This document shows positions 599 through 60,678 of a DNA stretch of 64,000 bases, one piece after another; within the stretch, counting starts at the first letter, position 1, and each line of letters begins with the position of its first letter. Made by a program: the position numbers and the translations under genes. Under the pieces are notes generated by a model, which had not been told where the DNA came from, ran no database searches, and saw only the letters and a program-made list of their open reading frames with translations. Source of the DNA: an uncultured Gemmatimonadaceae bacterium (lineage in GTDB: Bacteria; Gemmatimonadota; Gemmatimonadetes; Gemmatimonadales; Gemmatimonadaceae); NCBI GenBank assembly GCA_963790305.1, contig CAWBOC010000005.1:1-64000 (forward strand). Reading direction: 5' to 3'.

Positions 599-3184
599 TC
601 ACGCACGCTTCGTCATATCCCGGGCGAGCGCCGCCGCCCGCGCTCGGCTGCCCGCACCGAGCTTCTGCAGAAGCGCCGAGACGTGGTGATCCACCGTGCG
701 CGTCGACAGGAAGAGACGCTGACCGATCTCCCGATTCGAGAGCCCCTCCGCCAGCAGCTCGAGCACCTCCATCTGCCGGTTGGTGAGACCGGCAGGATTC
801 GCGCGCGTACTGCGGCGAGGTCCGCGCGCGAGACCACGCACGCCGCGGCTCTGCAACTGGCGTCGCACGATCGCGGCCGCCGGCGCCGCACCCAATCCCT
901 CGAGGATCTGGAGAGCAGCCCGCTGCGCTTCCTCATCGCCCTCGCTGAGAGCGAGCGCCTGCTCGTAGGGACAGCCCATTCGTTCCCATGCCTGCGCCGC
1001 CTCGCGCCAGCGTCCCGCGAGCTCCGAGGCGAATGGGTCGGGCAGATCCGCCGGCACGTCGCCTAACGCGCCCACGCGCCGGAGCCAGAGCGCGATCCGC
1101 CCGATGTCCCAGCGACTGCCAGCATCCATCGCCATGGAATACGCGCGCATGGCTTCGACACGCACCCCCTCGAGATCACCGCGGAGCCACGCCGCCTCGG
1201 CCCTCGCAGCCGCGACGGGGGCGATGCGCTGCAGCTCTCCCGTCGACAGCGCGCGCTCCAGCGCTTCGTCGAGGATGGCCTGCGCGCGCCGATCGCCGCG
1301 GCGAGTGTACACCGTGCCTAACGCGGCCAGGGAGGGCAGGCGAACGACGGTGGGGGCGTCGTCGCGCCGCAGCACGTCGGTCGCGTCGGCTTCCGCCTCG
1401 TCGAGGCGCCCCAGCTCGGCACGCAACCGAGCTCGCCAGCCGCGCAGATAGAACGAGAAGCTGTCGATGTCGCGCGACTCGGCGTACTCGATCGCCTCGG
1501 CCAGGAAACCCTCCGCGGCGACGTACTCCAGCTCGACGATCGAGTCGCAGATGAGCCAGGTGAAGGCGCGCATGGCGTGCTCGTGAAGACCATGCTGCTG
1601 GGCCAACCTGACTGCCCGCACCTGCGTCTCCCGGAAGCTGCCCGGCTCCAGGCACGCCGCGTTGGTGAGCGCATGGACCAATGCCTCGGGATCGCCAAGT
1701 GCCTCGGCCATTGCGACGGCGCGATCTCCCCACTGCGGAGCGAGCTTCCGTTCCTCGGCGAGGATGTGGAGCTGCGCCCGCGTGCTGTACGCCATTGCCA
1801 GCTCATGGCTGGGACCTAACGGCTCGAGGAGGACGATCGCCTGCTCGGCACATTGGGCCGCATCCGCACGGCGCCCCTCGAACCACGCCAGTCGCGAGAG
1901 CCAGCGAAAGTCGTCTCCCTCTCGGCGACGGTCACCGACCTGCCGCCACAGCTTTAGCGCCTCCTCGCGTGCCCGAACCGCCTCCGCGATCCGGCCATTC
2001 AGGTGGACCTCGTAGGACCAGGCATCCAGCAGCGCCGCACGCTCCGCGGGCGGCGATCGGTCGGCATAACGAAGCGCGCTCCCAAAATGCGCGGCCGCCT
2101 CCCGGTGAGCGCCAAGCGACGCTGCCTCGCGCCCGGCGGCCGGCGCGAGACGCAGCACGGTATCCGCGTCGCCGGCTCGGTCGGCGTGGTGGACCAGGCG
2201 CGGGAGCATTGTCGCGCCGCCATCGTGGGATTCAATGGCCTGGATCATCCGCCTGTGCAGCTCGGCCGCGTACGCCGGCTCGAGGGAGTCCTCCCACGCT
2301 CGCCGCGCCAGCTCGTGCCGGAAGGCCACGGCGTCGCGGGTGGCGCGCAGGATACCCGCGTCGACGCCCTCCTGCACCGCACGCGCAGGCTCATCCAGCA
2401 TTCGATCGAGGAGCCACCGCTCGATGCGGCCCGGCACGATCGAGACGACGTGCAGCACCGCGGTCGCCGCCGGCGTTAGGCGCGCCGCCCGCGCGAGCAC
2501 GGCGTCCCGCACCGATGCGGGAATCCCGCCGCCATCCGTCCCCAACACCTCGGTGACGTAGAAGGGGTTGCCCCCGGTGATGCTGTGAAGGTCCTCCGCT
2601 CGGCGACCCGCGGCCGTCGCAAGGCGCGCCACCGCGTTCTCCGAGAGCGGTGGCAGCTTGAGGCGCCGAGCGGATTGGGCTGGGAGCTCGCCGAGTACCC
2701 TGCGGAGCGGGTGGGTCGCGTCCACCTCATCGTCGCGGAAGCTGAGCACCAGCAAGCTCTGCGTCTTGCCGATCCGTCGCACCAGGAACTTGAGCAGGTC
2801 GAGCGTCGCTTCGTCCGCCCAGTGCACGTCCTCGAAGATGGCGAGCGTCCTCGGCGACGGGCGGGACAGCTCATCGAGCAGGCTCAGAAAGACCCGCTCG
2901 CGGTCGACGGTGCCGCGAGTGACCTCGCGCAGCACGCCCGGCGTCTGCCGCGCCATGTCGAGCAGCGGACCCAGTGGGCGCGGCGTGAACAGCGCGTCAC
3001 AGGCGCCCCACAGGACTCGCGTGCGACCGTCGGCCGTCTGGAGGCGATCGGCGAAGTGCTCCAGCAACGTCGTCTTCCCGATCCCCGCCTCGCCGCTCAC
3101 GAGCACGGCACACCCGCGCCCGCCGGCGGCGCCGGCGAGTGCAACATCCAGCTCAGTCAGAAAGGCGTCGCGCTCCAGGAACAT
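599..3184 (-). CDS. LuxR-family transcriptional regulator with N-terminal AAA ATPase (MalT/STAND-like)
   Basis: Walker A GEAGIGKT, Walker B AIFEDVHWAD, GGNPFY, C-terminal LTNRQMEVL..GLSNREIG..STRTVDHHVS HTH. Confidence 0.93.
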   Translation of the reverse strand: MFLERDAFLTELDVALAGAAGGRGCAVLVSGEAGIGKTTLLEHFADRLQTADGRTRVLWGACDALFTPRPLGPLLDMARQTPGVLREVTRGTVDRERVFLSLLDELSRPSPRTLAIFEDVHWADEATLDLLKFLVRRIGKTQSLLVLSFRDDEVDATHPLRRVLGELPAQSARRLKLPPLSENAVARLATAAGRRAEDLHSITGGNPFYVTEVLGTDGGGIPASVRDAVLARAARLTPAATAVLHVVSIVPGRIERWLLDRMLDEPARAVQEGVDAGILRATRDAVAFRHELARRAWEDSLEPAYAAELHRRMIQAIESHDGGATMLPRLVHHADRAGDADTVLRLAPAAGREAASLGAHREAAAHFGSALRYADRSPPAERAALLDAWSYEVHLNGRIAEAVRAREEALKLWRQVGDRRREGDDFRWLSRLAWFEGRRADAAQCAEQAIVLLEPLGPSHELAMAYSTRAQLHILAEERKLAPQWGDRAVAMAEALGDPEALVHALTNAACLEPGSFRETQVRAVRLAQQHGLHEHAMRAFTWLICDSIVELEYVAAEGFLAEAIEYAESRDIDSFSFYLRGWRARLRAELGRLDEAEADATDVLRRDDAPTVVRLPSLAALGTVYTRRGDRRAQAILDEALERALSTGELQRIAPVAAARAEAAWLRGDLEGVRVEAMRAYSMAMDAGSRWDIGRIALWLRRVGALGDVPADLPDPFASELAGRWREAAQAWERMGCPYEQALALSEGDEEAQRAALQILEGLGAAPAAAIVRRQLQSRGVRGLARGPRRSTRANPAGLTNRQMEVLELLAEGLSNREIGQRLFLSTRTVDHHVSALLQKLGAGSRARAAALARDMTKRA

Positions 3185-3222
3185 GCGCTAGTTATTCAGT
3201 GAAATGCGCAACGAGTCCTATT

Positions 3223-3398: not shown

Positions 3399-3472
3399 CA
3401 TGCCCCTGCGCTCAAGAGCGTCGGAGGCACTCCCCCAATATGGGCATTCGCACTTTGCCCGTCCAGAGCGAT

Positions 3473-4064
3473 TCACGTCAGGAGTAGCACGATCCCGGAC
3501 GCGGCGAGGGCGATCGACCAGAGCGCGTCGGTATTGATCCATATCCGACGGAGCACGCCGACGCCCGTTAGGCGAAACGCCACCAGGGCGGCAGTGGTCA
3601 TCGCGAGCAGCATGGCCAAGCTATGGACGACGAGGACGGCGATGCCCGCGGGCGGAGCTCCAGTGGTGCGCATGCGTCGCCCCGAACAAGGAAGGAAGAA
3701 GCATGAGCCCCGCGCCGTGCGACGATGCCATCACGAACGACCATGCGACCAATCCACCGGGCCCGAGCCGCATTCCCCCGCCCCGTGGATGCGCACGACG
3801 CCGGAAAAGCAGCGCCGAGGAGCCGAGGAGTACTGACGCGCCGATCCATCGGAGCGTGTCGATGGGTACGAGTGAGTCCGCGAGCGCGGCGGCGGCGATG
3901 ACCACCGCCACCGACGCGGCGTGACCGAGGAAGATCGGCGGCAGTGCCTGCATAACGGCGCTCGCGCGCCGCTCCTGCAACCCGAGCGCGGTCGCGAGCA
4001 GCCATCCCATCGCAGGGTTCAGCCCGTGATAGGTGCCGAGCAGCCCGATGAGCATCCAGCTCAT
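3473..4064 (-). pseudogene. Membrane protein downstream of SBP56; frameshift near 3660-3680 (possibly a sequencing error)
   Basis: MSWMLIGLLGTYHGLNPAMGWL...ASSHGAGLMLLP continues in another frame as GIAVLVVHSLAMLL...WINTDALWS; starts 7 nt after the SBP56 stop. Confidence 0.75.
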
Positions 4065-4071: not shown

Positions 4072-5493
4072 TCAGGGAAAGCAGAAGGAATCGGAGGAGG
4101 CGTCGCCTCCCTGGAGACGCACCTGGTGCGGGCGCATGTCGCCAAAGTCCATGAAGAAATCGGGCGCCGGCGTGAGCTCGCCCTCCGCATTCACGTCCAG
4201 TCGAGCGAGCCAGCCTCGAATGCCGCGCGGATAGAACTGCGCGTCCCACGCGAGGTAGAGCGAGTTGGTCACGTAGACGCGACGGCCATCGCGACTCAGC
4301 TCGATCATCTGCGGCCCGCCGTCCAGCGGCCGATTCGGTTCCGACGGATGCGCCGTACGACGAACGATCCCGCCGAGGTGGACCGAGGACACGAGTTGCG
4401 GCGCCAGCGGGTCGGTGACGTCGTAGCGTCGCAGCTCGCCCGTTCCCCAGCACGCGACGTAGAGGAAGCGGTCGTCGAGGGAGAGCGCGATGTCGCTCAC
4501 CAGCGGCGGGACCGCGCCGAAGGGCACGAGCGCCGGCGGCAGAGCGTCTGCGTCGGCCGGCTCGGCGGGGATGTCGATCACCTTTTTCGCCTGCCACTCT
4601 CCGTCACGGTGGAACCAGGTCCAGATGGAGCTGGAGAGATCGGTGAGGTTGAGCACCACGTTGACGAAGCCGTGGCGTTTCGTCGGGTCGTGGGCCGGAC
4701 GCAGCTCGAGCACCATTTGGTTGTCGTCACCGAGCAAGAGCGACTGCACGTGCCGCCGCGCGCGCAAATCCCAGAAGTGAAGCCGCCGGCCGTACTCCTT
4801 CGCCATGAGCAGCTCCGGCTGGACGCCATGCTCGACCTGCGCCGGTGTCCCCCATTCGCTGGTGACCATCGTGTCCCATCCCAGGTGCCACCAGAAGTCG
4901 TACGCCAGCCGCTGCGGTCCGCGCTCGATCTCCCACGGGCCAAGCGGCTCGAAGGTGTCGTGGTCGAGCACGAAGACTCCGCCCGGCGCACCGCCGGTCG
5001 CGTTGCCGATGGCGCTGACGTAGATGCCGTCGGGACCGCAATGCACCGTGTGCGGACGCGAGTAGCCCGTGCGCGCCGCCAGCTCTTCCGGCTCGATCAC
5101 CTTCACGACGCGCGGATTCGCCGGATCGGGCTCGGTGTCGACGACGTAGATCCGCGACGAGCGAAGCCCCGGGACGATGAGGTAGCGCCGACGAACGTGC
5201 GGGTGCGGCGCGTACGGGCAGAGCGCGGCACTGCACGCATTCCAGCCGAAGTGGTGCAGCTCGTCGCCCGCGTACGGCAGATCGAGCCGACCGATCGTCG
5301 TGCCTAACCGCTCGGAGTCGCGGTTGCAGTCCACGACCGCGATCGCGTCGGGGCGGCCGTCGCCTGGTGTCGGGTTGATCAGGGCGACGTATGCCATCGT
5401 CTCCGGCGGCGCTTCCATCGCTGCCCGCGGTGATGCGTAGAAGGTCGGGTCTGGAAGCAGCCGGCGCATTGTGTCAGAGAGCAGCGTGGCCAT
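4072..5493 (-). CDS. Selenium-binding protein SBP56 / methanethiol oxidase family
   Basis: DELHHFGWNACS, PHTVHC, YDFW, TSEWG, LELRPAH, GGPQMIELSRDG, NSLY..WD.QFYP, GGDASSD. Confidence 0.93.
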   Translation of the reverse strand: MATLLSDTMRRLLPDPTFYASPRAAMEAPPETMAYVALINPTPGDGRPDAIAVVDCNRDSERLGTTIGRLDLPYAGDELHHFGWNACSAALCPYAPHPHVRRRYLIVPGLRSSRIYVVDTEPDPANPRVVKVIEPEELAARTGYSRPHTVHCGPDGIYVSAIGNATGGAPGGVFVLDHDTFEPLGPWEIERGPQRLAYDFWWHLGWDTMVTSEWGTPAQVEHGVQPELLMAKEYGRRLHFWDLRARRHVQSLLLGDDNQMVLELRPAHDPTKRHGFVNVVLNLTDLSSSIWTWFHRDGEWQAKKVIDIPAEPADADALPPALVPFGAVPPLVSDIALSLDDRFLYVACWGTGELRRYDVTDPLAPQLVSSVHLGGIVRRTAHPSEPNRPLDGGPQMIELSRDGRRVYVTNSLYLAWDAQFYPRGIRGWLARLDVNAEGELTPAPDFFMDFGDMRPHQVRLQGGDASSDSFCFP

Positions 5494-5648: not shown

Positions 5649-7064
5649 TTAGCGGAACTCGAACGTCAGACTCGCCCGCCCGCTCGGCAGCTTCTCGGGG
5701 ATGAAGCGGCGCAGATGCTGCGGTTGCGCCTGTGGATCGAGGAGACCATCGCGGACGAAATCGACGAGCCACTGAATCTCTTCCTCGGTCAGTGGCGCCG
5801 GCGCGCGCAGCAAAGGATCCAGCCTTGCCAACACCGGCGACATTGGGCCGAGCGGGCCCTGGAGATCGCCCGGCAAGCGCGCCGTCGTGTACGTCCCCGC
5901 CCCGCGCTGCGCGTCCAGGTGATACCGAATCGCATCCTCGAGCCGAGTGAATGCGCCGTTGTGCATGAAGGCGGGCTGGAGCGCGACGTTGCGAAGCGGC
6001 GACGTGCGAAACGCATAACGGTCCGCCGGGTTGCCGGTCACCTGCTCGAGCCCGAAGTCCTCGTTCGCGCCGGGTCCGTCGAACGTCATGTTGCTGACTG
6101 ACGGTGCGATCTGCGGAATCCCCGCGACGTGCTGCTTGAAGTCGCTGAACATTCTCATTCGATTGGCCCGCCACGGCATGGCACTGGACGCAGCCGGCTT
6201 TGCCGAAGAAGAGCACTGCGCCGCGCTTCTGCGACGGAGTCAGCGCATTGAGCTTCCCACGTGCATAACGATCGACCGGCGCGTCCGCGAACACGAGCGT
6301 GAACTCGAACTCGGCGATCGCGCGCGCGAAGTCGTCGTACGTGATCGGGTTGCCCGCCTTCACGTGCGCAAACACGTTTGCAAAGCGCTTGCGATAGTTC
6401 GGGGTCTCGTTCAGGCGCCTGATCACTTCGGCGCGGATGTCGTCGTTGTTCCCGGGAAAGTGGAATCCGGCCGCTTCCACGCGCTCGGTCGGCGGAATGA
6501 ACGCCTGCGCCGTGAGGAGATGCGGGCAGGTACGACAGGCTGGTGCCTTCCGGAGCAGGAAAGACGAAGCCGCCGCTGTTGTCGAACGGATCGCCCGACG
6601 GCGCGTGAAAGCGCGAGTTCCACATCAGCGCCGGGTAGAACACGTTGTTGATCACCATCGGCGTTCGCCGCTGATTGCGCGGTCCTCTCCGGGCCGGTCC
6701 GACGATGCGATTGTTGTCGACGCCAATCGCGATCGGCTGCGTGTCCCCGAAGCCGTTCGTCGGTGAATGACAGCCGCCGCAGGTGTTGTCGTCGTTGAGA
6801 CCCTGAATCGGGTCGAACCAGAGATTGCGGCCGACGTCGGCGAGCTGCCGATTGACACGACGGCCGAGGCGCCACTCGAGCGTGCTCGCCACTCGTCCGG
6901 TGAAGCCTTGGCGGGCGAGATATCGGCGCAGCACGTCGTCGAGATCGCCGCCGTCGATGGCCGAGACCGAAACGGTCGTGGGACTCACCGCGCGGGTAGG
7001 CTCCAGGTCGGAGCAGCCACCTAACGCGATTGCCGCGATCGCAGATTCCGAGGATGGGCCGCAT
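5649..7064 (-). pseudogene. Di-heme cytochrome c peroxidase (CcP/MauG family) lipoprotein, interrupted by three frameshifts (~7040, ~6525, ~6152)
   Basis: Pieces in successive frames: LGGC lipobox, GRNLWFDP, CGGCH, RRTP, LMWNSR; FFGKAGCVQCH; FRTSPLRNVALQPAFMHNG. Confidence 0.85.
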
Positions 7065-8643: not shown

Positions 8644-11211
8644 ATGACCACCTTCTTCCAGGATCTCCGCTACGCTGCCCGCGGGCTCCGCCGCGCGCCC
8701 GGCTTCACGCTCGTCGCCGTCCTGACCCTGGCACTTGGCATCGGCGCCAACGCCGCGATGTTCGGTCTGGTCGACGCGCTCCTCTTCCGCCCGCCGTCCG
8801 GCGTCGCCAATCCCGATCGCGTGGTGCGCGTGCAGATGCAGCTCCCCCCGCCTCCGAACGAGCCAGCGGGAGAGCTCTCATCGGCGATCTCGTATCCGGA
8901 CTTCGTCAACCTCCGCGACAATACGAAGGGATTTGCCGGGGCGGCTGCATTCGCGCCAACGACCGTATCGGTCGGCGAAGGGGTGGATGCACGAAACCAC
9001 AGTGCACTTCTCGTCAGCGGCGATTACTTCCGCCTCCTCGGCGTCCGCGCCGCGCGCGGACGGCTGATCCTTCCCGAAGACGACCGCGAAGGTGCAGCGA
9101 GCCCGGTGGTCGTGCTGAGCTACGATTTCTGGCGACGCACCTTTCCCGGAGATTCGGCAAACGGATCTCTGGGCAAGCCGATGACCATCGCGAACCGCTC
9201 GTTCACGATCGTCGGAGTAGCCCCCAGGCACTTCGTGGGAACCGACCTCGGAACGCCGGCGCTGTGGCTGCCTCTCGGGACCGCGCCGCTGTTCGGCTAC
9301 GACGCGCAAATGACGCGCTCCCGCTTCGTGGCGTGGTTGTCCGTCGTCGGCCGACTCGCCCCCGGAAGCACGCGGGATCAGGCGCGGTCAGCGGCGCAAG
9401 CTGTCATGCTCGCGGCGCGAGACGAGGGTGGGGAGTTGCCGACGCCGGGCGCCCTCGGTGGTCCGATGGGTGGCGAAGTGCGCGTCCAGATCGGCGGCCC
9501 GCCCGGTCCCGGTGGCGACCGCGCGCGCCGTCCGCCGCCGCCGACGGTCCGGTTGTCCGGGCTGGCGGGCTCACGCACCGCCTCCATCGAGCAGCCATTC
9601 CTTCGCGGGCGATCGATGCCGATCTCGCTCTGGTTCCTTGCCATCACCGGCGCCGTGCTCCTCATCGCCTGCGCGAACATCGCCAACCTCATGCTCGCGC
9701 GCACGACGAATCGCGCGCATGAGATCGGGGTCCGACTCTCGCTGGGCGCCACGCGCTGGCGCCTCACGCGCCAACTCCTGACCGAAAGCTTGCTCATCGC
9801 GGTGCTCGGCGGCGCAGCCGGTCTGTGGCTGGCGGTCTTCGGCGCCGATCTCCTTCCGCGCATCGTGCCGCTTCCGCCCCTTCCGCCCTTTCTGGACGCA
9901 CGGGTGCTCGCGTTCACCGCGCTGCTGACGCTCGGCACGACCATGGCCTTCGGTCTCGCGCCAGCCCTTCGTGCGACCCGACCCAATCTCCGGTCATCGT
10001 TAGGTGGCAGCGGTGTCGTCGGAGCTACCCGCTCGCTCGGGCGGCGCGCGCTGGTCGTCGTGCAGCTGGCGGCATCGCTCGTGCTTCTCATCGGCGCCGG
10101 CCTGTTCATCCGGAGTCTTCGCAACGTCAAGGCGATCGATGTCGGCTTTGACACCGACCGGTTGCTCGTCGCGTCGGTGGACGCGCGCGACCGCATGACG
10201 CGCGAGCAGACGGAGGAGTTCTGGCGACGCGCGCTGGATCGCACCCGCGCGCTTCCGGGCGTGCGCTCGGCCGCGCTGGGAATGGCGCCGCCGTTCGAGA
10301 TGAACATCATGATTCTGGTGGAGACGCCAGGGTTCCCGAGCCCCGACGGGCGGCCCCGCGGCGCGCAGCTCGACTTCGCCGGCGCCGGCTATTTCGCTAC
10401 GCTCGGGATCCCGATCCGACAGGGGCGCGCGTTCAACGAGGACGACCGAGCCGGTGGCGCGCGGGTGGCGATCGTCAACGAGACCATGGCACGCCGCATC
10501 TGGGGTGGACAGTCGCCGATCGGGAAGTGCGTGCGCGCGGAGCTGATGGCGCCCGATGCGCCGTGCGCCGAGGTGGTTGGCGTCGTCGCCGACGCGAGAT
10601 ACGCCGACATCACCGCGGACCCAGGGCCGTTCCTCTACCGTCCACTCGCGCAGCGCCCTCGTCAGGCACCACCGATGACGGTCATGTACGTTCGCACCAC
10701 GGACGATCCCACCGCGCTCGCCGGAGCGCTCCGCCGCGAGCTGGAAGGGCTGGATCCGTCTGTGCGATTTGCGGAGGTGCGGCCGCTGACGAATCTGATC
10801 ATGCCGCAGCTTCAGCCGTGGCGTGTAGGGACGATGATCTTTGCGCTGTTCGGGGCTCTCGGGCTGGTGCTGGCGGCGGTCGGGCTGTACGGCGTGCTGT
10901 CGTTCCTCGTCGCACAGCGCACTCGCGAGATCGGTGTGCGCATCGCGTTAGGCGCGCCGTCAGAGAGCATTCTTGGCCTGGTGCTCGGCCAGGGTGGGCG
11001 CCTCATCGCGCTCGGCGTCGTCGTCGGCGTCATCCTCGGGGCCATGGCCACGCAGCTCTTTGCGTCCATGATGTTCGGCGTGAGCCCGCTCGATCCGTTC
11101 GTGTACCTCGCGACCGCGCTCCTAATGGCGACAATTGGGATGGTAGCGGTCTACGTCCCGGCACGCAGGGCGACAAAGGTCGATGCGATGGTGGCGCTGC
11201 GGGCCGACTAA
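8644..11211 (+). CDS. ABC transporter permease, duplicated MacB/FtsX (ADOP-type)
   Basis: QDLRYAARGLRRAPGFT..LALGIGANAA, LLIACANIANL, EIGVRLSLGA, QRTREIGVRIALGA, PARRATKVD. Confidence 0.95.
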   Translation: MTTFFQDLRYAARGLRRAPGFTLVAVLTLALGIGANAAMFGLVDALLFRPPSGVANPDRVVRVQMQLPPPPNEPAGELSSAISYPDFVNLRDNTKGFAGAAAFAPTTVSVGEGVDARNHSALLVSGDYFRLLGVRAARGRLILPEDDREGAASPVVVLSYDFWRRTFPGDSANGSLGKPMTIANRSFTIVGVAPRHFVGTDLGTPALWLPLGTAPLFGYDAQMTRSRFVAWLSVVGRLAPGSTRDQARSAAQAVMLAARDEGGELPTPGALGGPMGGEVRVQIGGPPGPGGDRARRPPPPTVRLSGLAGSRTASIEQPFLRGRSMPISLWFLAITGAVLLIACANIANLMLARTTNRAHEIGVRLSLGATRWRLTRQLLTESLLIAVLGGAAGLWLAVFGADLLPRIVPLPPLPPFLDARVLAFTALLTLGTTMAFGLAPALRATRPNLRSSLGGSGVVGATRSLGRRALVVVQLAASLVLLIGAGLFIRSLRNVKAIDVGFDTDRLLVASVDARDRMTREQTEEFWRRALDRTRALPGVRSAALGMAPPFEMNIMILVETPGFPSPDGRPRGAQLDFAGAGYFATLGIPIRQGRAFNEDDRAGGARVAIVNETMARRIWGGQSPIGKCVRAELMAPDAPCAEVVGVVADARYADITADPGPFLYRPLAQRPRQAPPMTVMYVRTTDDPTALAGALRRELEGLDPSVRFAEVRPLTNLIMPQLQPWRVGTMIFALFGALGLVLAAVGLYGVLSFLVAQRTREIGVRIALGAPSESILGLVLGQGGRLIALGVVVGVILGAMATQLFASMMFGVSPLDPFVYLATALLMATIGMVAVYVPARRATKVDAMVALRAD

Positions 11212-11947: not shown

Positions 11948-11952
11948 ACGTT

Positions 11953-12034
11953 AGGCGCTAAAGGCGCTAAAGGCGCTGGAGGCGCAAACAACCTCCAGCG
12001 CCTCTAGCGCCTCTAGCAGCCCTCTAGCGCCTTT
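11953..12034. repeat. Palindromic element of AGGCGCTAG-type 9-nt units
   Basis: AGGCGCTAAAGGCGCTAAAGGCGCTGGAGG / CCTCCAGCGCCTCTAGCGCCTCTAGC..CTAGCGCCT between convergent genes. Confidence 0.85.
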
Positions 12035-12037: not shown

Positions 12038-13351
12038 TTACGGCACCGACGCGTCGCACTCCACAGCGAGCGGGTTGTTCAGCTCCTCGAACGGGATCGG
12101 CAAGCTCACGTCGTTGCCGTAGTTCCCACCTTGCGAGTACGCACCCGTCGGAAAAACCGAATTGGCCGACCGAGCGTACTGCCTAACCAGCCGGCGCATA
12201 TCCCCGAGCCGGTGCGCCGTCAGCCAGAGCCAGAACGCCCGCTCACGGAACATGAGATCGATCCGGCCCGCCGGCGTGCCGGGATCGGTGAGTGCAGGGA
12301 GCCCCGGCGTGCGAAGCGCGTTGAGCGTGCCGAGCCACGCAGTCGTATTCCCCGCCCTGAGCTGCGCCTCCGCTTCGATCAGCCGCGCTTCCGTTCCACT
12401 GGCGAGCACGACGTCGTTTTCCCGCTCCGGATACTTGAGCTGATGGAACATCGGTGTCACGCCATCGAAGCCGACGCCGTCATCCGGATCGAGCTCGAAC
12501 GTCACCCGGGGATCGGCCGCGGATCGGAAGGGCAGACCTTCCCCGCCCTCACTATCCGCCACCGTCCAACGCCCCTGAATGTTGACGTAGGCGAACACGC
12601 CGTTTTCCTGACGAGCCGTGTTGTCCGAATGCTCGATCTCGAACACGAAATCATCCGGAACGTCAGCCGCGATCGCCGCGGCATCCGCCGGCCGGTCGAG
12701 GTTGAGCAGCGCGCGCGCCTTGCCGACCATCGCCAGATACTGCTCCGGCGAGTCGGCGTCCGACGCGGCGATCGCCGCATCGAACCGCTCGATCGCCTCC
12801 GTGAACAGCTCCTGCGTCGAGAGCGGTGGACCGAACTCCGTACCGCCAGCATCGGTCAGCGTGCTCACCGGTACGCCCGAGCAGAAATTCTCGCCTAACA
12901 GGATGTAGCTGTACGCCGCGATCGCCAGGGAGAGCGCGTGCCCCGACGTGTTCGGAGCAAACTCCTGATGACGCCTTGCGGAAAGCTCCGCCGCGGCACG
13001 CGCCCGGTGAACGTAACTGTACGCCGTGTTGAGCGTGGTGTTGACGTTGTCGATGTCGCGGCGGTCGATCGGAACGCGCGTCGGAAAGCTCTCGGCAATC
13101 TCGAACTCGTCCGCCAGCAGTCCTCCCAGATTGACGAGCCCCTCGGTCACGCCGGCGTTGTCACCGCTGTACGCGAGCTGAAAATCCCCGAACGCACCGG
13201 CGAGCAGCACCGGCAGCGCGTCTTCGCCCGTCAGCGAGCCCGGGGTCGCCACATCCGGATCATCCACGTCCAGCAGGTCACCGAAATTGCACGCCGACGC
13301 CGCCACGATCATCCCGACGCCGAGCACCGTTGACTTCAAGAAGTTTTTCAT
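12038..13351 (-). CDS. susD: RagB/SusD family nutrient-uptake lipoprotein
   Basis: ASAC lipobox; EARLIEAEA, LNALR, ERAFWLWLTAHRLGDMRR, LPIPFEE; directly follows the SusC-like gene. Confidence 0.88.
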   Translation of the reverse strand: MKNFLKSTVLGVGMIVAASACNFGDLLDVDDPDVATPGSLTGEDALPVLLAGAFGDFQLAYSGDNAGVTEGLVNLGGLLADEFEIAESFPTRVPIDRRDIDNVNTTLNTAYSYVHRARAAAELSARRHQEFAPNTSGHALSLAIAAYSYILLGENFCSGVPVSTLTDAGGTEFGPPLSTQELFTEAIERFDAAIAASDADSPEQYLAMVGKARALLNLDRPADAAAIAADVPDDFVFEIEHSDNTARQENGVFAYVNIQGRWTVADSEGGEGLPFRSAADPRVTFELDPDDGVGFDGVTPMFHQLKYPERENDVVLASGTEARLIEAEAQLRAGNTTAWLGTLNALRTPGLPALTDPGTPAGRIDLMFRERAFWLWLTAHRLGDMRRLVRQYARSANSVFPTGAYSQGGNYGNDVSLPIPFEELNNPLAVECDASVP

Positions 13352-45105: not shown

Positions 45106-46374
45106 TTACTCGATCGCGCCCGCGTAGGCGCGTGCGATCTCCGCTTGAAGGAACAGGTCTCCGCGCTCGAGTGCGCGGTCCGCGGCACGAATGCCAATCG
45201 TCATGCCCGCTTCAGCATCGAAGCGGTAGTGAATTCCAGCGTACACGCGCGAGTCACACGCCTCGACAGCCATGCGCTCGAGATCCTCGGCTTCACTCGG
45301 AAAGAGTGCGGCCAGCACCTCGGCGCCGGCACCCGACATGCACGCGTGTCCCGACGGATAAGAGGGATGCGGCGGTTGACCGATCGGGGTCGTGATCGCC
45401 GGATCGGCCTGCCATGGACGGACGAGCCAGTAGGCAAACTTCGAGTCCCAGCAGCCGATGACCGCATCTGCCATCGCGATATTCATGAGCGCGAGCGTAC
45501 GCGCGGCGCTGAGCTCGGCGACACCGCGCTCCTGAATGAGCTGCGCCGCGATGGCGTTCCAATGCCCCGCCGGTGTATAGGTGCCCGCGCCGTCGGCCCA
45601 GAACCTGGCCGTTTCCATCTGCGCCGGCGTCCTCGAATCAGCGATCTGCCGTACTTCCGCGAGGCCATCACGAAATTCCTGTGAATTGAAGGCCGGTGGA
45701 GGCGAGGCTCGCAGCTCGCTCCCCGAATCCCAGAGCCATGGCCGCACCAGCCCCCACGCCGGAAGCTGCGGCGCATTTCCGGTCCAGTAGCCATCCCCGT
45801 TAGGCAGCGTGCCAGTCCAGGCGGCGTTCCAGCCGTCGGCGTCGGCACGTGTCGCGAGGCTCGCCGCGATCCGCGTCCCAATCGCGGCCGCCCTCTCGAT
45901 TGCCGGCATCTCGATCGATTGGCCGCGCAGAGCGGCCAGTTCGGCACTCAGCTCGTGCTCGATACGCACCGAGTGCAATGGAAAGAGCTTCCGAAGCACG
46001 TGCGCCGAGGCGGTAGCGATGGCGGCGCGTGATGGGCTTTGCGCGTCTCGGAGCGACTCGAGGGACGGCACCGTCCCCGGCCGAATACCACGGGCGGCGA
46101 CGGCGGACGCGTACTGCGCGATGCTCAGATAGGCGTATGCGCGGCCAGCGATCGGGGGCGCGGCGCGATCGATCGTGACGAGCTCCCGGGCGAGCGCGTT
46201 CCAGCGTACGCTTGTCCCCGCTTCCTCAGGAACCGGAGCGGTGACGCCGCCGTCAGAGCACGAAAGCGCGGCTGCGGCAAGCAGAAGCGCGATCGAAAAG
46301 CGAGCAGGGCTCTGGCGGAGATGACGGGGTATCGGTGGCGACGCGGTGCGTCCCACCCGTTGCTGAATGTCCAT
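45106..46374 (-). CDS. Vanadium-dependent haloperoxidase / PAP2 phosphatase family lipoprotein
   Basis: KFAYWLVRP, HPSYPSGH, SRVYAGIHY; ALSC lipobox; start uncertain. Confidence 0.88.
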   Translation of the reverse strand: MDIQQRVGRTASPPIPRHLRQSPARFSIALLLAAAALSCSDGGVTAPVPEEAGTSVRWNALARELVTIDRAAPPIAGRAYAYLSIAQYASAVAARGIRPGTVPSLESLRDAQSPSRAAIATASAHVLRKLFPLHSVRIEHELSAELAALRGQSIEMPAIERAAAIGTRIAASLATRADADGWNAAWTGTLPNGDGYWTGNAPQLPAWGLVRPWLWDSGSELRASPPPAFNSQEFRDGLAEVRQIADSRTPAQMETARFWADGAGTYTPAGHWNAIAAQLIQERGVAELSAARTLALMNIAMADAVIGCWDSKFAYWLVRPWQADPAITTPIGQPPHPSYPSGHACMSGAGAEVLAALFPSEAEDLERMAVEACDSRVYAGIHYRFDAEAGMTIGIRAADRALERGDLFLQAEIARAYAGAIE

Positions 46375-47795: not shown

Positions 47796-49283
47796 CTACC
47801 GGCGCATGGCGCGGCGGCCTTCGGTCTCGATGGCCTGGGCAGGACCGGTGGCCCCGAAGATGAACTGGAAGGGCGACAGCCCTCCAAAGCTCGTCGCCAC
47901 GAAGATCTGTTTGTCGGCGTCTCGAACGTCGAGCGCGAGATCGGGAAGCACGCCCCAGCGCACACGCAGACCACTCTCGTCAGGCACGATCTCAATGCGG
48001 CCAAGAGCGGCATCTTCGTATGTGCCGACGTAATCGGAGAGCGGGCGCGGCGGGGTGTGCACGGGCGGTGAGGCGCTCGCCAGGCGCGCTCGCCGAGTCT
48101 GAAGCTGGGTGACCACCGTATCGAGCCGCGCCTGACCACGCGCGTCGGCATCCGTTCGGCCGAGGAACACGTCGTAGGCATACCCGGCGATGACATCGGT
48201 GAGCCGCCAGCCTGGCGTGCTGTTGACCTGGGCGACGACGCCGACGCGACGCGCGGGCAGCATCGAGAGGTGGGATCGAAACCCGGTGTACGATCCGAAG
48301 CGGCTCACCATCGGTTCCCCGTTGTAACTTCCAATGTCCCATCCAAATCCCCAGCCGTCGCGCTGGAAGTAGGCGAACTGCGCATTCTGGCGGCCGAGAA
48401 TCTCGTGCGAGCGCCGAATCACCTGTGCGGGAAAGATCTGCCGCCCGTCGAGGCGGCCCTCGTCCATGTGCAGAATCGCCCAGCGCGCCAGGTCGGCGAT
48501 CGAGGCCACGTGTCCGCCGGCGGAGTTCATCGTTAGGTCGCGCTTGAGGAACGGCTGCGCCTCGTAGCTCCCATCGGCACGCAGTTGATGCGCTTTCGCG
48601 ATGCGCCGCTCCGGAATGCCCGTGACACGGTGGTGAATGTCTCGCAGGCCGGCCGGGGCGAACACGTTGCGATCCAGATACGCTTTCCATCCTTCCGGGC
48701 GCTTCTCGGCGATCGCCATGCTGGCGACGTTGTAGCCGAGGTTGCTGTAGTTGAGGTCGCGCGTGGGCAGCGGATCGCTGAACGCGAGGAGCTGGTTGAA
48801 CTGCTCCTCCGGAAAGGCGCCTGTGTAAGCCGCCGATGTCGTGAGCGGACCGCTGTTGAGACCGTGCGTGTGAGAGAGGAATGACGCGAGGGTGAGCTCC
48901 CCGGGGCGCGCGTTCGCGTGCCACATCGCACGCGGGAGTACTCTCGTGATCGGCGCGTTGAGGTCGATCACGCCAGCGGCCTCGAGCAAAGCGACACCAA
49001 ATCCGGTGAACGCCTTCGACGTCGACGCCACATACCAGAGCGTCGAATCGGTGACCGGAATCCCTTCCTGCACGTTTGCGTGTCCGAGCGCGGCCGTGTA
49101 GACGATGCGACCCTCCGACACGACGGCGACGCCGAGCCCCGGGGTGACGCCCAGGGCGAAGGCACGGCGCACGAATCCATCGATGCGCTGGATTCTTGGA
49201 TCAACGGTCGCCGGCACGGGGACGGTGCGACAGGCCGTGGTCAGCACAGGCAATGCGAGAGCGACGGCGTATGCGAGCTGCAT
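47796..49283 (-). CDS. Serine hydrolase, beta-lactamase/AmpC-like family with C-terminal DUF3471-like domain
   Basis: ASTSK (SxxK), FLSHTHG, YSNLGY, SAGG..ASIADLARW, LSDYVGTY. Confidence 0.9.
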   Translation of the reverse strand: MQLAYAVALALPVLTTACRTVPVPATVDPRIQRIDGFVRRAFALGVTPGLGVAVVSEGRIVYTAALGHANVQEGIPVTDSTLWYVASTSKAFTGFGVALLEAAGVIDLNAPITRVLPRAMWHANARPGELTLASFLSHTHGLNSGPLTTSAAYTGAFPEEQFNQLLAFSDPLPTRDLNYSNLGYNVASMAIAEKRPEGWKAYLDRNVFAPAGLRDIHHRVTGIPERRIAKAHQLRADGSYEAQPFLKRDLTMNSAGGHVASIADLARWAILHMDEGRLDGRQIFPAQVIRRSHEILGRQNAQFAYFQRDGWGFGWDIGSYNGEPMVSRFGSYTGFRSHLSMLPARRVGVVAQVNSTPGWRLTDVIAGYAYDVFLGRTDADARGQARLDTVVTQLQTRRARLASASPPVHTPPRPLSDYVGTYEDAALGRIEIVPDESGLRVRWGVLPDLALDVRDADKQIFVATSFGGLSPFQFIFGATGPAQAIETEGRRAMRR

Positions 49284-49610: not shown

Positions 49611-49803
49611 AGGCGCCTCGGATTGGAGCGTGCCTAACGGTGATGATCGCGTGAGTCGGCGGCGCTGAACAAATGTGGAGCTCGTGTCTCCAGAGTCAAC
49701 TCGCGCGAGTGTTCAAGTGTTTCACCGCACGGCGACCGCCATTCGCCGGACGCCAGACGCCGCCGGCCATACGGGGTACGCATCGTGCTCGGCAATTCGC
49801 TTC

Positions 49804-52095: not shown

Positions 52096-52989
52096 ATGAA
52101 AGCTTCCTGGCGCATCGCATTGAGCCTCCCGCTCCTCGCCTGCGGGGACGACGGAGTCGCGCCGGTGCTCGAAGGGCCACCCCTCGTGACGTCGGAGCGG
52201 CGCATCACGTTCTCCTCCACGCGAGACGGGAACCTCGAGATCTACTCGATGAACGTGGACGGGACCGACCAGCGGCGCCTAACGAACCACACCGGCGCCG
52301 ACCACAACGCCGATTGGTCCCCCGACGGAAGCCGGATCGCCTTCATGGGATACCGCGACGGGGATTACGAGCTGTACGTCATGAACGCCGATGGGATCGG
52401 GCTTCGTCAGCTCACTTTCAATTCCGCGCATGACGGGTTTCCACGCTGGTCGCCGAGTGGGCTGGAGATCATGTTCACCTCGCTGCGCGACGGAAACTTC
52501 GAGGTGTACGTGATGAGCGCGTTCGGCGGGAACGAGCGCCGGCTGACGGTGAATCCCACCGACGACGTCGGCGGCGCGTGGTCGCCCGACGGGTCGAAGA
52601 TCGCCTTCTCGTCCGGCCGCGACGGGAATCTCGACGTCTACGTGATGAACGCCGACGGGTCGAACCCCGTGCGCCTCACGGACCACGAGGCGGCCGACGG
52701 CGGCCGCATCGCCTGGTCTCCTGACGGGACGCGGATCGCCTTCTCATCTTTCCGCGACAGCAACGACGAAATTTACGTCATGAACGTCGATGGCACGAAC
52801 GTCACGCGCCTGACGAACAACCCGGCGAAGGACAAGTATCCAGCCTGGTCGCCTGACGGTCTCCGCCTCGCCTTCAGCACCAACCGTGATGGGAACGACG
52901 AGATCTACGTCATGAATGCGGACGGCACCGGGCTCGCCCGCCTGACGAACAATTCGGGTATCGATTTCCTGGATGGGTGGAGGAGGTAA
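52096..52989 (+). CDS. TolB-like PD40-repeat beta-propeller lipoprotein
   Basis: LLAC lipobox; repeated WSPDG..IAF.S.RDGN.EIYVMNADG...RLT. Confidence 0.92.
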   Translation: MKASWRIALSLPLLACGDDGVAPVLEGPPLVTSERRITFSSTRDGNLEIYSMNVDGTDQRRLTNHTGADHNADWSPDGSRIAFMGYRDGDYELYVMNADGIGLRQLTFNSAHDGFPRWSPSGLEIMFTSLRDGNFEVYVMSAFGGNERRLTVNPTDDVGGAWSPDGSKIAFSSGRDGNLDVYVMNADGSNPVRLTDHEAADGGRIAWSPDGTRIAFSSFRDSNDEIYVMNVDGTNVTRLTNNPAKDKYPAWSPDGLRLAFSTNRDGNDEIYVMNADGTGLARLTNNSGIDFLDGWRR

Positions 52990-54053: not shown

Positions 54054-55733
54054 ATGCAAGCACAGAGCTACGACGCGATCGTGGTGGGGTCGGGGATATC
54101 CGGCGGCTGGGCGGCCAAGGAGCTCACCGAGAAAGGGCTCCGCGTCCTTCTGCTCGAGCGGGGGCGCAACGTCGAGCACATCAAGGACTACGTCAACGCA
54201 ACCAAAGGGCCCTGGGAATACCCGCATCGCGGCGGGCGCACGCAGGACATGATCCGCCGCTACCCGGTGCTCAAGCGCGACTTTCCGCTCAACGAGAAGA
54301 ATCTCGACTTCTGGGCATCCGACCAGGACTCTCCGTACACCGAGGTCAAGCGCTTCGACTGGTATCGCGGCTATCAGGTCGGCGGCCGGTCGCTCATGTG
54401 GGGCCGGTGCAGCTTTCGGCTCAGCGACATCGACTTCGAAGCCAACCTCAAGGATGGCATCGCCAGCGACTGGCCGATTCGCTACGCCGAGATCGCGCCC
54501 TGGTACAGCCACGCGGAGCGGTTCGCCGGGATCGCGGGATCCAAGGAAGGCCTCGAGCAATTGCCGGATGGTGAATTTCAGCCGCCGATGGCGCTCAACT
54601 GCGCCGAGGAGCTGATCGCGTCACGCCTGACGAGTCGCTTCGGCGGAAAGCGCCGGCTGATCTCGAGTCGCACCGCGAATCTGACCCAGCCCCTCCCCGG
54701 GCGAGGGGCGTGTCAATACCGCGATGCCTGCTGGCTCGGCTGCTCGTACGGCGCCTATTTCAGCACGCAGTCGGCGACGCTGCCGGCCGCCATGCGCACC
54801 GGGCGCCTAACGCTTCGTCCCTTCGCGATCGCCAGCGAGGTGCTGTACGACCGCGACCGCAAGCGCGCGACGGGAGTTCGCGTGCTCGACGCCATCACCA
54901 ATGAGACGACGGACTACACGGCGAAGGTCGTCTTCCTGTGCGCATCGACGCTCAATTCCACCTGGCTGCTCATGCGCTCGGCGACCAATGTCTGGCCGGG
55001 TGGACTCGGCAGCAGCTCGGGCGAGCTCGGGCACAACCTGATGGACCACCACTTTCGCGTCGGGGCAGCCGGCCAGGTCGATGGATTGGACGACAAGTAC
55101 CTCTACGGTCGTCGTCCGAATCCGTCCTACGTCCCGCGCTATCGCAACCTCGGTGACGACAAGCGACCCTATCTGCGCGGATTCGGGTACGAGGGCGGCG
55201 CCGGCCGCGAAGGGTGGTGGCGCGCCGTAGCCGAGCTCGGTGTCGGCGGAGCGTTCAAGGATGCGATGACCGAGCCCGGGCGATGGTCGTTCGGCGCCAC
55301 CGCCTTCGGGGAGATGCTCCCGAATCACGCCAACACGGTGACGCTCGACGAGACGAAGAAGGACAAATGGGGACTGCCCGTCCTCAAGATCGACTGCGCG
55401 ATCGGCGAGAACGAGCGGCTCATGCGGAAGGACATGGCGGCAGACATGGCCGAGATGCTCACCGCGGTCGGCCTCAAGGACGTGCACACGTTCGACGACG
55501 AATACTATCCGGGCATGGGCATCCACGAGATGGGCACGGCGCGCATGGGGCGCGATCCGAAGACGTCGGTGCTCAACAAGTGGAATCAGGTGTGGGATGC
55601 ACCTAACGTCTTCGTCACCGACGGCTCCTGCATGGCGTCGACGGCGTGTCAGAATCCCTCGCTGACGTACATGGCGTTGACGGCCCGCGCGGCAGACCAC
55701 GCGGTGAATGAGCTGAATCGGCGGAGCCTTTGA
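54054..55733 (+). CDS. GMC family oxidoreductase
   Basis: DAIVVGSGISGGWAAKEL, GGRSLMWG, GELGHNLMDH, IHEMGTARMG, CQNPSLTYMALTAR. Confidence 0.95.
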   Translation: MQAQSYDAIVVGSGISGGWAAKELTEKGLRVLLLERGRNVEHIKDYVNATKGPWEYPHRGGRTQDMIRRYPVLKRDFPLNEKNLDFWASDQDSPYTEVKRFDWYRGYQVGGRSLMWGRCSFRLSDIDFEANLKDGIASDWPIRYAEIAPWYSHAERFAGIAGSKEGLEQLPDGEFQPPMALNCAEELIASRLTSRFGGKRRLISSRTANLTQPLPGRGACQYRDACWLGCSYGAYFSTQSATLPAAMRTGRLTLRPFAIASEVLYDRDRKRATGVRVLDAITNETTDYTAKVVFLCASTLNSTWLLMRSATNVWPGGLGSSSGELGHNLMDHHFRVGAAGQVDGLDDKYLYGRRPNPSYVPRYRNLGDDKRPYLRGFGYEGGAGREGWWRAVAELGVGGAFKDAMTEPGRWSFGATAFGEMLPNHANTVTLDETKKDKWGLPVLKIDCAIGENERLMRKDMAADMAEMLTAVGLKDVHTFDDEYYPGMGIHEMGTARMGRDPKTSVLNKWNQVWDAPNVFVTDGSCMASTACQNPSLTYMALTARAADHAVNELNRRSL

Positions 55734-58819: not shown

Positions 58820-60678
58820 AGCACTGCCTCGTGATCGGAGTGCTGCTGGCAACGCTGCCAGCCGCACTCCCCGCGCAACGTCAGGGGGACACGCGGCGCA
58901 TTCGCGCCGAGTATGCGGCCGTGCTCCTTCAATCGAAGAAGTACGATGAAGCCATCGCGGAATACCGCCGCCTCGTCAGCGCGGAGCCGAGCCGCTTCGA
59001 GTATCGCATGGGCCTGGCCCGCGCGCTCGCGTGGTCCAAACGGCATCGCGACGCCGAGAACGAGCTGTCGCGGCTGCGCGCCCTGAGGCCTGGCCACGCC
59101 GAGGTCGAGCAGCTCACGCGAACCGTCCGCGCCGCGCTCGATCCGTCCTCGGGCGAGGCACGGTCGTGGGTGGCGCATGACCCGGGGCATCTCCCGTATC
59201 GCATTCAGCTCGCGCGCGCCTATGCGCGCGAAGGGAGGTCTCGTCAGGCAGCCGACCAGTTCGACACGATCTTCCGCGGAGGCGCGCGCGACGATCTCGC
59301 GCAGGAGGCGGCCGCGGCGAATGCGGATGCGAAGCGCTTCGCGACGGCGTTGCCTCTGTATCGCCGCGCCATCTCCCGGGCGCCCTCGGACACCGCGCTC
59401 CGCCACGACTATGCGCGATCGCTCTGGTTGGCTGGCGAACGTCGCGCGTCGCTGGCGCAGTACGACACGCTGCTCCTGCGCTTCCCGTCCCCGGCGTGGC
59501 TCGTCGAGCGCGCGAAGCTCCGCGTCGCCATGCGTGACCACAATGGCGCCGAGCGCGATCTCGCGTCCGCGATCGCAATGTGTCCGACTGCCGAAGCGTA
59601 CTTCGTACGGGGGGAGCTGCGCCGGTGGAACGGCCAGCTCGGCGCGGCGCGCGCCGAGTATGAGCGCGCGCTGCAGCTCGCAGGGACCGACTCGGCCGGC
59701 AGGGAGATTCGCGATCTCATCGCGCTCATCGAGCGCGAGGCGCGCCCCTCGCTTGGCGCGGCCCCCGAAGGCGATGCGGTCGGCTGGGTAGGGCGTGCCG
59801 AGCTCGCCGCGGACAACACCGGCTTCTCGTACGTCAGCGGCGGCGGACGCTACGGCATGCCGCTGGGACGACTCGCGGCCGCCAGCATCGGCGTCGAGCA
59901 GCGACGCGTTGCCGCGAAATACGATCTCTATACGCGCGAGAGCTACGGCTTCGGAGCCGACCTGGGAGCGACGGTAGGCCTTCCGTTCGCGCGGCTCAGC
60001 GCCCGCGGAGGGATGCTTCGCCATGGCGGCACCACGGAGACGGGATACGGCAGTGTCGGGGTGATCGGATGGTGGCGCTCGTGGCGAGCCTCGGCGGAGG
60101 TGAAGCGCGAGCTGGCGTTCCCGCTTCTGATGACCGCTCGCGCGCTGGCGACCAGCGATGAGATCGAGCCGGGAGAGACCGTCGACGCATCGATCATGGC
60201 CACCCGCCAGATCTACGGGTTGGCAGGCGCCGTCGGCGTCGTCGATTTCGGGATCGTCGCCGACATCATGCGTCTCACCGACGGCAACTCGCGGCCCGCC
60301 TTCACGACGACAGTGCGGTACCCGCTCGGTGACGCAATGTCGGCGCTCTACGTCGCGAGCGACCTCCGCTTCGAGGAACGCAGCGCGTTTTACTGGGATC
60401 CGACGCACTACATGGCGCACTCGTTAGGGCTGGAGGCATCGGCGCGTCGGGATCGCGGGCTGTCATACGTGGGCCGGCTCCTCACGGGCTTTGCGCGCAG
60501 CTCGCAGCTGGATACGACGGTCACGACCAGCTACGCCTTCCATGGTTCTGCCGAAGGCGAGCTGACGTATCGCGCCTCCGGGTGGGACGCGGGCCTCACG
60601 TCGTGGTACGGCCGGGGACGGGACGGGGACTACCAGCGCTGGGGCGGGAGCTTCCGGATTCGGCTGAGCACGCCATGA
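58816..60678 (+). CDS. TPR protein with probable C-terminal outer-membrane beta-barrel (PgaA/BcsC-like architecture)
   Basis: Signal peptide LPAQ; multiple TPRs; C-terminal amphipathic strands with FYWDP; GTGA overlap. Confidence 0.75.
   Translation: MKHCLVIGVLLATLPAALPAQRQGDTRRIRAEYAAVLLQSKKYDEAIAEYRRLVSAEPSRFEYRMGLARALAWSKRHRDAENELSRLRALRPGHAEVEQLTRTVRAALDPSSGEARSWVAHDPGHLPYRIQLARAYAREGRSRQAADQFDTIFRGGARDDLAQEAAAANADAKRFATALPLYRRAISRAPSDTALRHDYARSLWLAGERRASLAQYDTLLLRFPSPAWLVERAKLRVAMRDHNGAERDLASAIAMCPTAEAYFVRGELRRWNGQLGAARAEYERALQLAGTDSAGREIRDLIALIEREARPSLGAAPEGDAVGWVGRAELAADNTGFSYVSGGGRYGMPLGRLAAASIGVEQRRVAAKYDLYTRESYGFGADLGATVGLPFARLSARGGMLRHGGTTETGYGSVGVIGWWRSWRASAEVKRELAFPLLMTARALATSDEIEPGETVDASIMATRQIYGLAGAVGVVDFGIVADIMRLTDGNSRPAFTTTVRYPLGDAMSALYVASDLRFEERSAFYWDPTHYMAHSLGLEASARRDRGLSYVGRLLTGFARSSQLDTTVTTSYAFHGSAEGELTYRASGWDAGLTSWYGRGRDGDYQRWGGSFRIRLSTP

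Follow-up and report, generated by a model that had tools for sequence, protein, structure and literature searches.

Sites in the 64-kb window

The stretch analyzed here (64,000 nt, hereafter the window) is G000:C5:1-64000, from an uncultured Gemmatimonadaceae bacterium whose genome, G000, comprises 4.31 Mb in 13 contigs and is 94% complete. Its genes are interspersed with a six-base word, CCTAAC (GTTAGG on the opposite strand), which a sequence-only reading had singled out as hyper-iterated. That reading gave 33 copies as a minimum; each of the 33 coordinates carries the word, the window holds no further copies, and its figure of 28 copies extended to CCTAACG was exact. As it had also reported, the word occurs on both strands (20 copies on + and 13 on -) and in several frames. 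In 100 dinucleotide shuffles of the window, the 6-mer occurred 6.8 ± 2.2 times (maximum 13) compared to the 33 real copies and the 7-mer 2.9 ± 2.0 times (maximum 9) compared to 28, with 0 of 100 shuffles reaching the observed count in either case. The expectation of about 7 that had been quoted for the 7-mer suits the 6-mer, and the GC content, given as ~68%, measures 66.0%.

Using gene calls from a home-made codon model, which cover 85% of G000, we placed 27 of the 33 sites inside genes, where the word reads as x-Leu(TTA)-Gly (13 sites, 5 of them A-L-G), x-Leu(CTA)-Thr (7 sites, 4 of them R-L-T), Pro-Asn (6 sites), or Val-Arg (1 site). The rare codons said to be imposed by the word, TTA in A-L-G and CTA in R-L-T, are accordingly there. 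The one-base neighbors that had been named as scarce are so (CCTAAT, 2 copies; CCTAAG, 1; GCTAAC, 1), but others abound, namely CCTGAC (46), CCTCAC (44), and CCGAAC (43). Two features had been missed: a G at position -1, which gives the consensus GCCTAACG, and a match to the core of integron attC sites. An Rfam search of the window returned no matches. The sites are as follows.

1062..1067 (+), CCTAAC(G): TTA in A-L-G, LuxR/AAA gene 599-3184 (-)
1317..1322 (+), CCTAAC(G): TTA in A-L-G, LuxR/AAA gene 599-3184 (-)
1815..1820 (+), CCTAAC(G): TTA in P-L-G, LuxR/AAA gene 599-3184 (-)
2475..2480 (-), CCTAAC(G): CTA in R-L-T, LuxR/AAA gene 599-3184 (-)
3567..3572 (-), CCTAAC(G): CTA in R-L-T, short weakly scored open reading frame
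5303..5308 (+), CCTAAC(C): TTA in R-L-G, SBP56 gene
7020..7025 (+), CCTAAC(G): outside gene calls
9999..10004 (-), CCTAAC(G): TTA in S-L-G, MacB/FtsX permease gene
10947..10952 (-), CCTAAC(G): TTA in A-L-G, MacB/FtsX permease gene
11950..11955 (-), CCTAAC(G): outside gene calls, directly after a stop codon
12182..12187 (+), CCTAAC(C): GTT-AGG (Val-Arg), SusD-like gene
12894..12899 (+), CCTAAC(A): TTA in L-L-G, SusD-like gene
14063..14068 (-), CCTAAC(G): Pro-Asn, TonB-dependent receptor gene
16535..16540 (+), CCTAAC(A): outside gene calls
17261..17266 (+), CCTAAC(G): TTA in A-L-G
18613..18618 (+), CCTAAC(G): outside gene calls
19339..19344 (+), CCTAAC(G): Pro-Asn
20956..20961 (-), CCTAAC(G): outside gene calls
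22298..22303 (+), CCTAAC(G): Pro-Asn, PKD-domain gene
23254..23259 (-), CCTAAC(G): TTA in A-L-G, PKD-domain gene
26397..26402 (+), CCTAAC(G): Pro-Asn, RCC1/Ig-like gene
29633..29638 (-), CCTAAC(G): CTA in V-L-T, SdpI-like gene
32199..32204 (+), CCTAAC(G): TTA in S-L-G, Schlafen/AlbA gene
34330..34335 (-), CCTAAC(G): CTA in S-L-T, GDSL hydrolase gene
36971..36976 (+), CCTAAC(G): TTA in T-L-G, DUF5724/DUF4132 gene
38813..38818 (+), CCTAAC(A): TTA in L-L-G, DUF5724/DUF4132 gene
45799..45804 (-), CCTAAC(G): Pro-Asn, PAP2 gene
48532..48537 (-), CCTAAC(G): CTA in D-L-T, serine hydrolase gene (Pfam Beta-lactamase family)
49633..49638 (+), CCTAAC(G): outside gene calls
52278..52283 (+), CCTAAC(G): CTA in R-L-T, PD40-repeat gene
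54806..54811 (+), CCTAAC(G): CTA in R-L-T, GMC oxidoreductase gene
55602..55607 (+), CCTAAC(G): Pro-Asn, GMC oxidoreductase gene
60423..60428 (-), CCTAAC(G): TTA in S-L-G, TPR gene

Amid transport and hydrolase genes, the window also holds a Schlafen/AlbA_2-HATPase gene (31430-33103, -) and a gene for a 1,651-aa DUF5724/DUF4132/DUF7737 protein (35371-40326, -).

Excess, retention, and spacing of the word

G000 as a whole contains 1,547 copies of CCTAAC on the two strands, at 0.23-0.47 per kb on each of the 13 contigs, and the word ranked first in a genome-wide Markov z-score check of 6-mers at maximal order. A G is found at position -1 in 71% of the sites and at +1 in 79%, yielding the consensus GCCTAACG (855 copies), which is not palindromic (its reverse complement is CGTTAGGC). 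In 3,192 well-scored genes we counted 1,097 copies of the 6-mer, compared to 199 ± 8 in 20 within-gene codon shuffles (5.5-fold), and 668 copies of the 8-mer GCCTAACG, compared to 39 ± 5 in the same number of such shuffles (17-fold); each of the four reading frames without a stop is enriched. Codon-preserving shuffles do not reproduce the count, and the genome-wide, non-palindromic signal proposed from the window is borne out as one under selection or drive.

The word contains 572 of the 985 TTA codons, fills 15% of the Pro-Asn and 13% of the Ala-Leu-Gly opportunities, and overlaps stop codons (56 of 829 TAG, 47 of 421 TAA). Its density is 0.46 per kb in short intergenic gaps versus 0.32 in genes, where there is an antisense excess (647 versus 450). 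With respect to replication, 416 versus 359 sites (53.7%) fall on the G-rich strand (p = 0.044, with 8 segments chosen by skew), and orientation is balanced in 50-kb bins. There was no clustering at the level of genes (best p = 0.01 among 3,924 genes). The longest word-free stretch, 30 kb (G000:C13:206819-237005), is a polysaccharide biosynthesis cluster of lower GC content (63%) that was likely acquired, and G000 DNA under 60% GC has one GCCTAAC in 15 kb. Sites number 0 over 7 kb and 4 over 8 kb of rRNA regions, and the word is not depleted in the integron array region. A prophage test found a terminase in 0 of 5 genomes.

The word is kept genome-wide at synonymous positions of ordinary genes. 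In codon alignments with three congeners, which all use G000 and so are not independent, 45 of 65, 20 of 27, and 13 of 33 G000 sites were identical (78 of 125 overall), with identities at 4-fold sites of 59%, 52%, and 49%, respectively; conservation at orthologous sites, which had been suggested as a check, is thus seen. Relative to the congeners, TTA was retained at 57 of 79 positions inside the word and 7 of 55 outside it, and CTA at 6 of 9 inside and 13 of 152 outside. Divergence near shared sites was not lowered: 4-fold identity is flat with distance (for congener G008, 0.58-0.61 versus 0.59).

Recognition is graded. Relative to a codon null that over-predicts TAA words, the variants ACCTAACG (16-fold), GCCTAACA (10-fold), GCCTAACT (5-fold), and GCCTAACC (4-fold) are enriched in G000, as are, more weakly, GCATAACG (3-fold), GCCTGACG (2.7-fold), CCCTAACG (2.5-fold), and GCCTATCG (2.2-fold); the control variant GCCGAACG stands at 1.1-fold. 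Substitutions at the first C, the T, or the last C gave no enrichment.

Sites also exclude one another. Using a null of permissive sites, we found one pair of within-gene neighbors closer than 100 bp, compared to 34 ± 6 expected, and 59 compared to 131 closer than 500 bp. Both orientations behave alike: below 100 bp there were 0 same-orientation pairs versus 19 in the null and 1 opposite pair versus 16, and from 100 to 500 bp, 32 versus 58 and 26 versus 49. The exclusion reaches about 500 bp in G000 and about 200-300 bp in the denser genomes G016 and G234. Weak variants shun strong sites within 150 bp as well (GCATAACG, 13 versus 26 expected; GCCTCACG, 31 versus 61), whereas the control GCCGAACG shows no avoidance (68 versus 67).

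Distribution among relatives, the orphan methyltransferase, and attC sites

The number of GCCTAACG copies differs greatly among 30 relatives. All eight congeners (382-1,006 copies), G012 (605), G016 (6,360), and G030 (345) are rich, and the other 19 are poor (3-65). In a survey of 250 genomes of the phylum, 12 had at least 150 copies, and these belong to two families of this order; the intermediate genomes (110-340 copies) could include large cassette arrays; none of the 81 genomes outside the order exceeded 70 copies. The genus g38 is bimodal, with 12 genomes carrying 2,664-6,209 copies of GCCTAAC and 14 carrying 11-99. Because three methyltransferase pieces from rich g38 genomes are 74-79% alike, and 59-63% alike to four from poor ones, sequence similarity suggests that the rich g38 genomes form one subclade. 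The unpublished genomes G015, G078, G117, G197, and G290 enter as word-poor rows or tallies only, and no conclusion rests on them.

Among rich lineages the density ranges more than tenfold (0.16-1.9 per kb). The best word, found in three families, is the same for all clearly rich lineages sampled, and the tolerated variants are lineage-specific: G000 and G016 take ACCTAACG and GCATAACG; g38 takes GCCCAACG and GACTAACG instead. The 12 rich g38 genomes carry 128-378 copies of GACTAACG, the 14 poor ones 1-17, and G000 has 9. The pattern of rich and poor genomes is not one of simple decay, and remnants of GACTAACG are absent from the poor g38 genomes. Unusually close homologues between G000 and samples of rich genomes were housekeeping genes only.

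A search of G000 by regular expressions, six-frame scans, PF01555, and PF00145 found a sole DNA methyltransferase, an orphan Type IIG-like adenine enzyme of 1,021 aa (C7:233022-236087) that is followed by an SNF2 helicase. Its motifs DPACGSG and NPPW are intact, and it matches PADLOC Type IIG with an E value of 1e-40. The enzyme is present in 29 of 31 relatives, and 102 of 110 loci have a helicase match alongside. Within g38, 11 of the 12 rich genomes carry the enzyme, as do 10 of the 14 poor ones. No alignment column separated 22 word-rich from 53 word-poor loci; this alignment left out 12 duplicate or fragment loci and proteins shorter than 780 aa, 12 loci were unlabelled, and the labels of loci from the homologue search derive from 5-23 kb, with at least one rich label doubtful (L189, 52% GC). 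C-terminal motifs were common to 7 rich and 7 poor proteins. Graded variants, together with a methyltransferase that is not co-distributed with the word, speak against a restriction-modification target. The methyltransferase-helicase pair (C7:233022-238370; L041:5023-10371) behaves as a core single-copy pair in Gemmatimonadales, which is unusual for defense-type genes.

The consensus of attC cores is GTTRRRY, and that of inverse cores RYYYAAC. The word, as GTTAGGC/GCCTAAC, is identical letter for letter to the commonest attC core of the word-poor relatives; whether integrons caused it is a separate claim, considered with the rival explanations below. In these relatives, most of the copies listed lie in same-strand runs spaced 500-600 bp apart; these runs are arrays of cassettes whose attC cores read GCCTAAC...GTTAGGC. 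Calls of R'' cores gave the word in 65 of 80 (G021), 15 of 21 (G019), 10 of 11 (G020), and 9 of 12 (G026) cases, with a finder that often scored one site on each strand and made some false calls; apart from G000, the rich genomes had 0-4 calls each. G000 encodes an integrase at C9:694,912 (449 bits), with a cassette array downstream in the same orientation (C9:694912-726500). Its attC sites (133-140 bp) all lie in the array (C9:696-726 kb) except for two outliers, and have R'' cores GCATAAC (12), AACTAAC (7), and GTATAAC (2) and R' cores GTTATGC (10), GTTATAC (2), and GTTAGGC (1). Starts of congener attC sites of the same family were GCATAAC or ACATAAC in nine cases and GCCTAACT in three. The dispersed sites are single, lie within genes, are depleted at the 60-140 bp spacing of attC cores, and show no R''/R' hairpin pairing. 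In G016, the densest genome, the integrase was matched in three pieces in different frames (G016:C182:835-1781).

A putative uptake tag and rival explanations

To our knowledge, Neisseriaceae and Pasteurellaceae are the only groups for which sequence-specific uptake of DNA has been established, through the DNA uptake sequence (DUS; receptor ComP) and the uptake signal sequence (USS), respectively. We favor a reading in which GCCTAACG is a putative tag of this kind, maintained by uptake-sequence-like drive through a reader outside the candidates tested, and find it about as easy to credit as to doubt. A sequence-specific receptor would favor DNA fragments that carry GCCTAACG, and recombination of the favored fragments would spread and maintain the word. 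One site per short fragment may be enough, so that a second site nearby would not be kept against its rare-codon cost, and different lineages may have readers with the same best word and different tolerances. Graded, orientation-blind, and locally saturating recognition, a cost in rare codons, no lowered divergence, and a tenfold range of densities would all be expected from biased uptake plus recombination. In support are the excess over the codon null, the retention between species, the graded variants, the orientation-blind exclusion, the on/off distribution, and the presence of comEC, dprA, and type IV pilus genes. Among the analogies that the sequence-only reading had offered, uptake sequences and the cyanobacterial word HIP1 (highly iterated palindrome 1) gave the best fit, with no reader identified among the candidates tested.

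The pilus and competence genes of G000 comprise pilMNOPQ, three minor-pilin clusters, two major pilins, comEC, and dprA. The minor-pilin clusters (C3:166612-169007, C6:62109-63693, and C11:32551-36987) have very basic FimT/PilV-like members (isoelectric points 10.5-11.7), which are candidates for DNA binding.

Several observations weigh against an uptake tag. Competence genes do not discriminate, because comEC is present in 31 of 31 relatives and both word-poor genomes tested have matches to dprA and a ComEA-like HHH_3 domain; the ComEA-like match in G000 is weak and truncated where the contig ends. No ComP_DUS (PF16732) match exceeded the cut-off in five genomes, with none in G000, and two FimT-like G000 pilins, of at least 12 pilin-like genes, do not track the word. 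Inverted pairs of the terminator type are few: 5 within 40 bp for the 1,547 G000 sites, 5 in the G016 sample, and 2 in the G234 sample. The word has 7-8 bases, shorter than DUS (10) and USS (9), and the same best word occurs in three families with gaps between, unlike family-wide dialects. The attC sites of G000 avoid the word (1 of 34 cores; main pair GCATAAC/GTTATGC), which is easier to explain if something intracellular acts on it. A literature search found no published report of transformation in this phylum. For comparison, about half of DUES lie in terminators, according to one preprint (bioRxiv 10.1101/2025.10.24.684340).

We weighed four other explanations. Codon, codon-pair, or mutation bias, or a polar signal of the Chi or KOPS (FtsK-orienting polar sequence) type, is hardly credible. 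Chi and KOPS are likewise short, asymmetric, over-represented, and found inside genes, and the slight excess on the G-rich strand points their way; however, that excess matches the antisense excess in genes, replichore polarity is almost nil, and mutual exclusion is indifferent to orientation, all of which disfavors the Chi analogy drawn earlier. Codon bias itself is refuted by the 5.5- to 17-fold excess over codon shuffles in all four open frames and by the retention of rare codons inside the word only. An integron integrase, which would drive the word by recombining homologous DNA at the sites, would account for its letter identity with the commonest attC core of relatives, for the match between a secondary variant of G000, GCATAAC, and its own attC core, and for the frequency of the G234 secondary variant, GTCTAAC, in that genome's attC sites. 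We nevertheless regard this as very unlikely: integrase presence does not follow the word (5 of 12 rich versus 8 of 14 poor g38 genomes), none was found intact in the rich genomes G005, G012, and G124 or, as noted, in G016, the one attC site of G016 uses GTCTAAC, which is not enriched there, and the dispersed sites are single and lie at synonymous positions of aligned genes, not at cassette junctions.

The word with its preferred flanks could instead be the target of the order-wide Type IIG-like methyltransferase, with a patchily distributed reader of the mark, in methylation-gated uptake or repair, causing it to accumulate only in some lineages. Type IIG sites are asymmetric, as CCTAAC is, and no DNA methyltransferase other than this enzyme, whose catalytic motifs are intact, was found in G000. 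HIP1 offers a precedent, in that one report describes methyltransferases uncorrelated with its abundance and methylation that raises transformation (PMC13756078). Yet the enzyme occurs in rich and poor genomes alike with no residue that tracks the word, the tolerated variants vary by lineage whereas its C-terminal motifs do not, the flat 4-fold identity argues against site-directed repair, and the methylome of Gemmatirosa lists RGATCY, ATGCAC, and CCAGN7TCA, and no CCTAAC (PMC3974934; whether that strain carries the orthologue was unchecked). We consider this account improbable, and the simpler analogy to a methylation site, raised from the window, is disfavored on the same distribution and on graded recognition. 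Less improbable, though still unlikely, is a cytoplasmic DNA-binding protein, either a nucleoid organizer or a loader for recombination or protection that works in either orientation, which would need one site per few hundred to few thousand bases and for which selection would keep the sites. Orientation-blind exclusion and graded variants suit any reader of double-stranded DNA, terminator pairs were not seen, and attC cores shun the word in G000 yet use it in the word-poor G021, G019, G020, and G026; for HIP1, similar conservation is described and periodicity is discussed as chromosome organization (PMC5861425). On the other hand, a more than tenfold range of density among rich lineages and close relatives without the word are hard to reconcile with an essential chromosomal role, and the attC shift comes mostly from one attC family in one genus. 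Sites are also not excluded from parS, the nearest lying at ~250 bp (G000), 675 bp (G016), and 95 bp (G234) with normal density; G205, G159, and G114 have too few sites to judge.

Returning to uptake, the word shares with DUS and USS a short, non-palindromic form, hundreds to thousands of copies on both strands and in permissive frames, graded single-mismatch variants, lineage dialects, comEC alongside a type IV pilus, and perhaps scarcity in acquired DNA, given its absence from one probably acquired cluster. For DUS and USS, published work describes drive, mismatches that are graded, and a paucity in recently acquired DNA (PMC1939737, PMC7811141), and the USS receptor has been predicted to be ComN/PpdA (PMC12616744). 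The word differs from them in length, phylum, the lack of terminator inverted pairs and of a ComP_DUS match, and its on/off occurrence within one genus. Although it behaves as uptake sequences do, it does not belong to DUS/USS, because neither the terminator pairs nor the ComP receptor were found when tested. Like HIP1 (GCGATCGC), which recent reports propose to be an uptake signal (PMC13756078; PMC5861425), it is hyper-abundant, is conserved at orthologous sites beyond codon choice, keeps degenerate variants, and has an orphan methyltransferase in its clade; unlike HIP1, it is not palindromic, has no known methylation inside, and occurs in fewer than half of the genomes of the order. It has the letters of the main attC core of word-poor relatives, but its dispersed copies, single and inside genes, lack the paired hairpin, and real attC sites of G000 are GCATAAC/GTTATGC.

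A fuller scenario, which we hold to be doubtful, is that outside Proteobacteria the integron cassette core was co-opted into a third, independent uptake-sequence system: receptors for GCCTAAC, which marks both cassette ends in this order, would have arisen or been switched on repeatedly with differing tolerances, drive would have spread the word chromosome-wide, and attC would have left the word in at least one tagged genus. We found no published description of the word in full-text literature, a search that did not cover supplements, and metagenomic methylation motif tables (e.g., PMC8919816) or REBASE could list CCTAAC. The integron literature with GTTAGGC yielded no useful description.

For decades HIP1 has resisted explanation, in part because it occurs in almost every cyanobacterium. 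The comparable word described here goes from ~10-100 to ~5,000 copies within a single genus and is found, with different tolerances, in three families, so that the origin of hyper-iterated words becomes directly testable by profiling gene families in 12 rich and 14 poor g38 genomes. If GCCTAACG is indeed an uptake tag, it would provide a means of transforming a phylum that is abundant in soil but for which few genetic tools exist.

Nine word-poor genomes (47-90 kb each) contained no other clearly iterated word and one weak candidate, GCTCTAC/GTAGAGC, with 14 copies versus 1.5 expected in 50 kb of G018 (L092, L093, L034, and L067). In G000, the next most over-represented words belong to 7-base tandem or hairpin repeat families, GGAGTCA/TGACTCC, CCGCATT, and CCTCTAG, an example of which lies at window positions 16540-16552.

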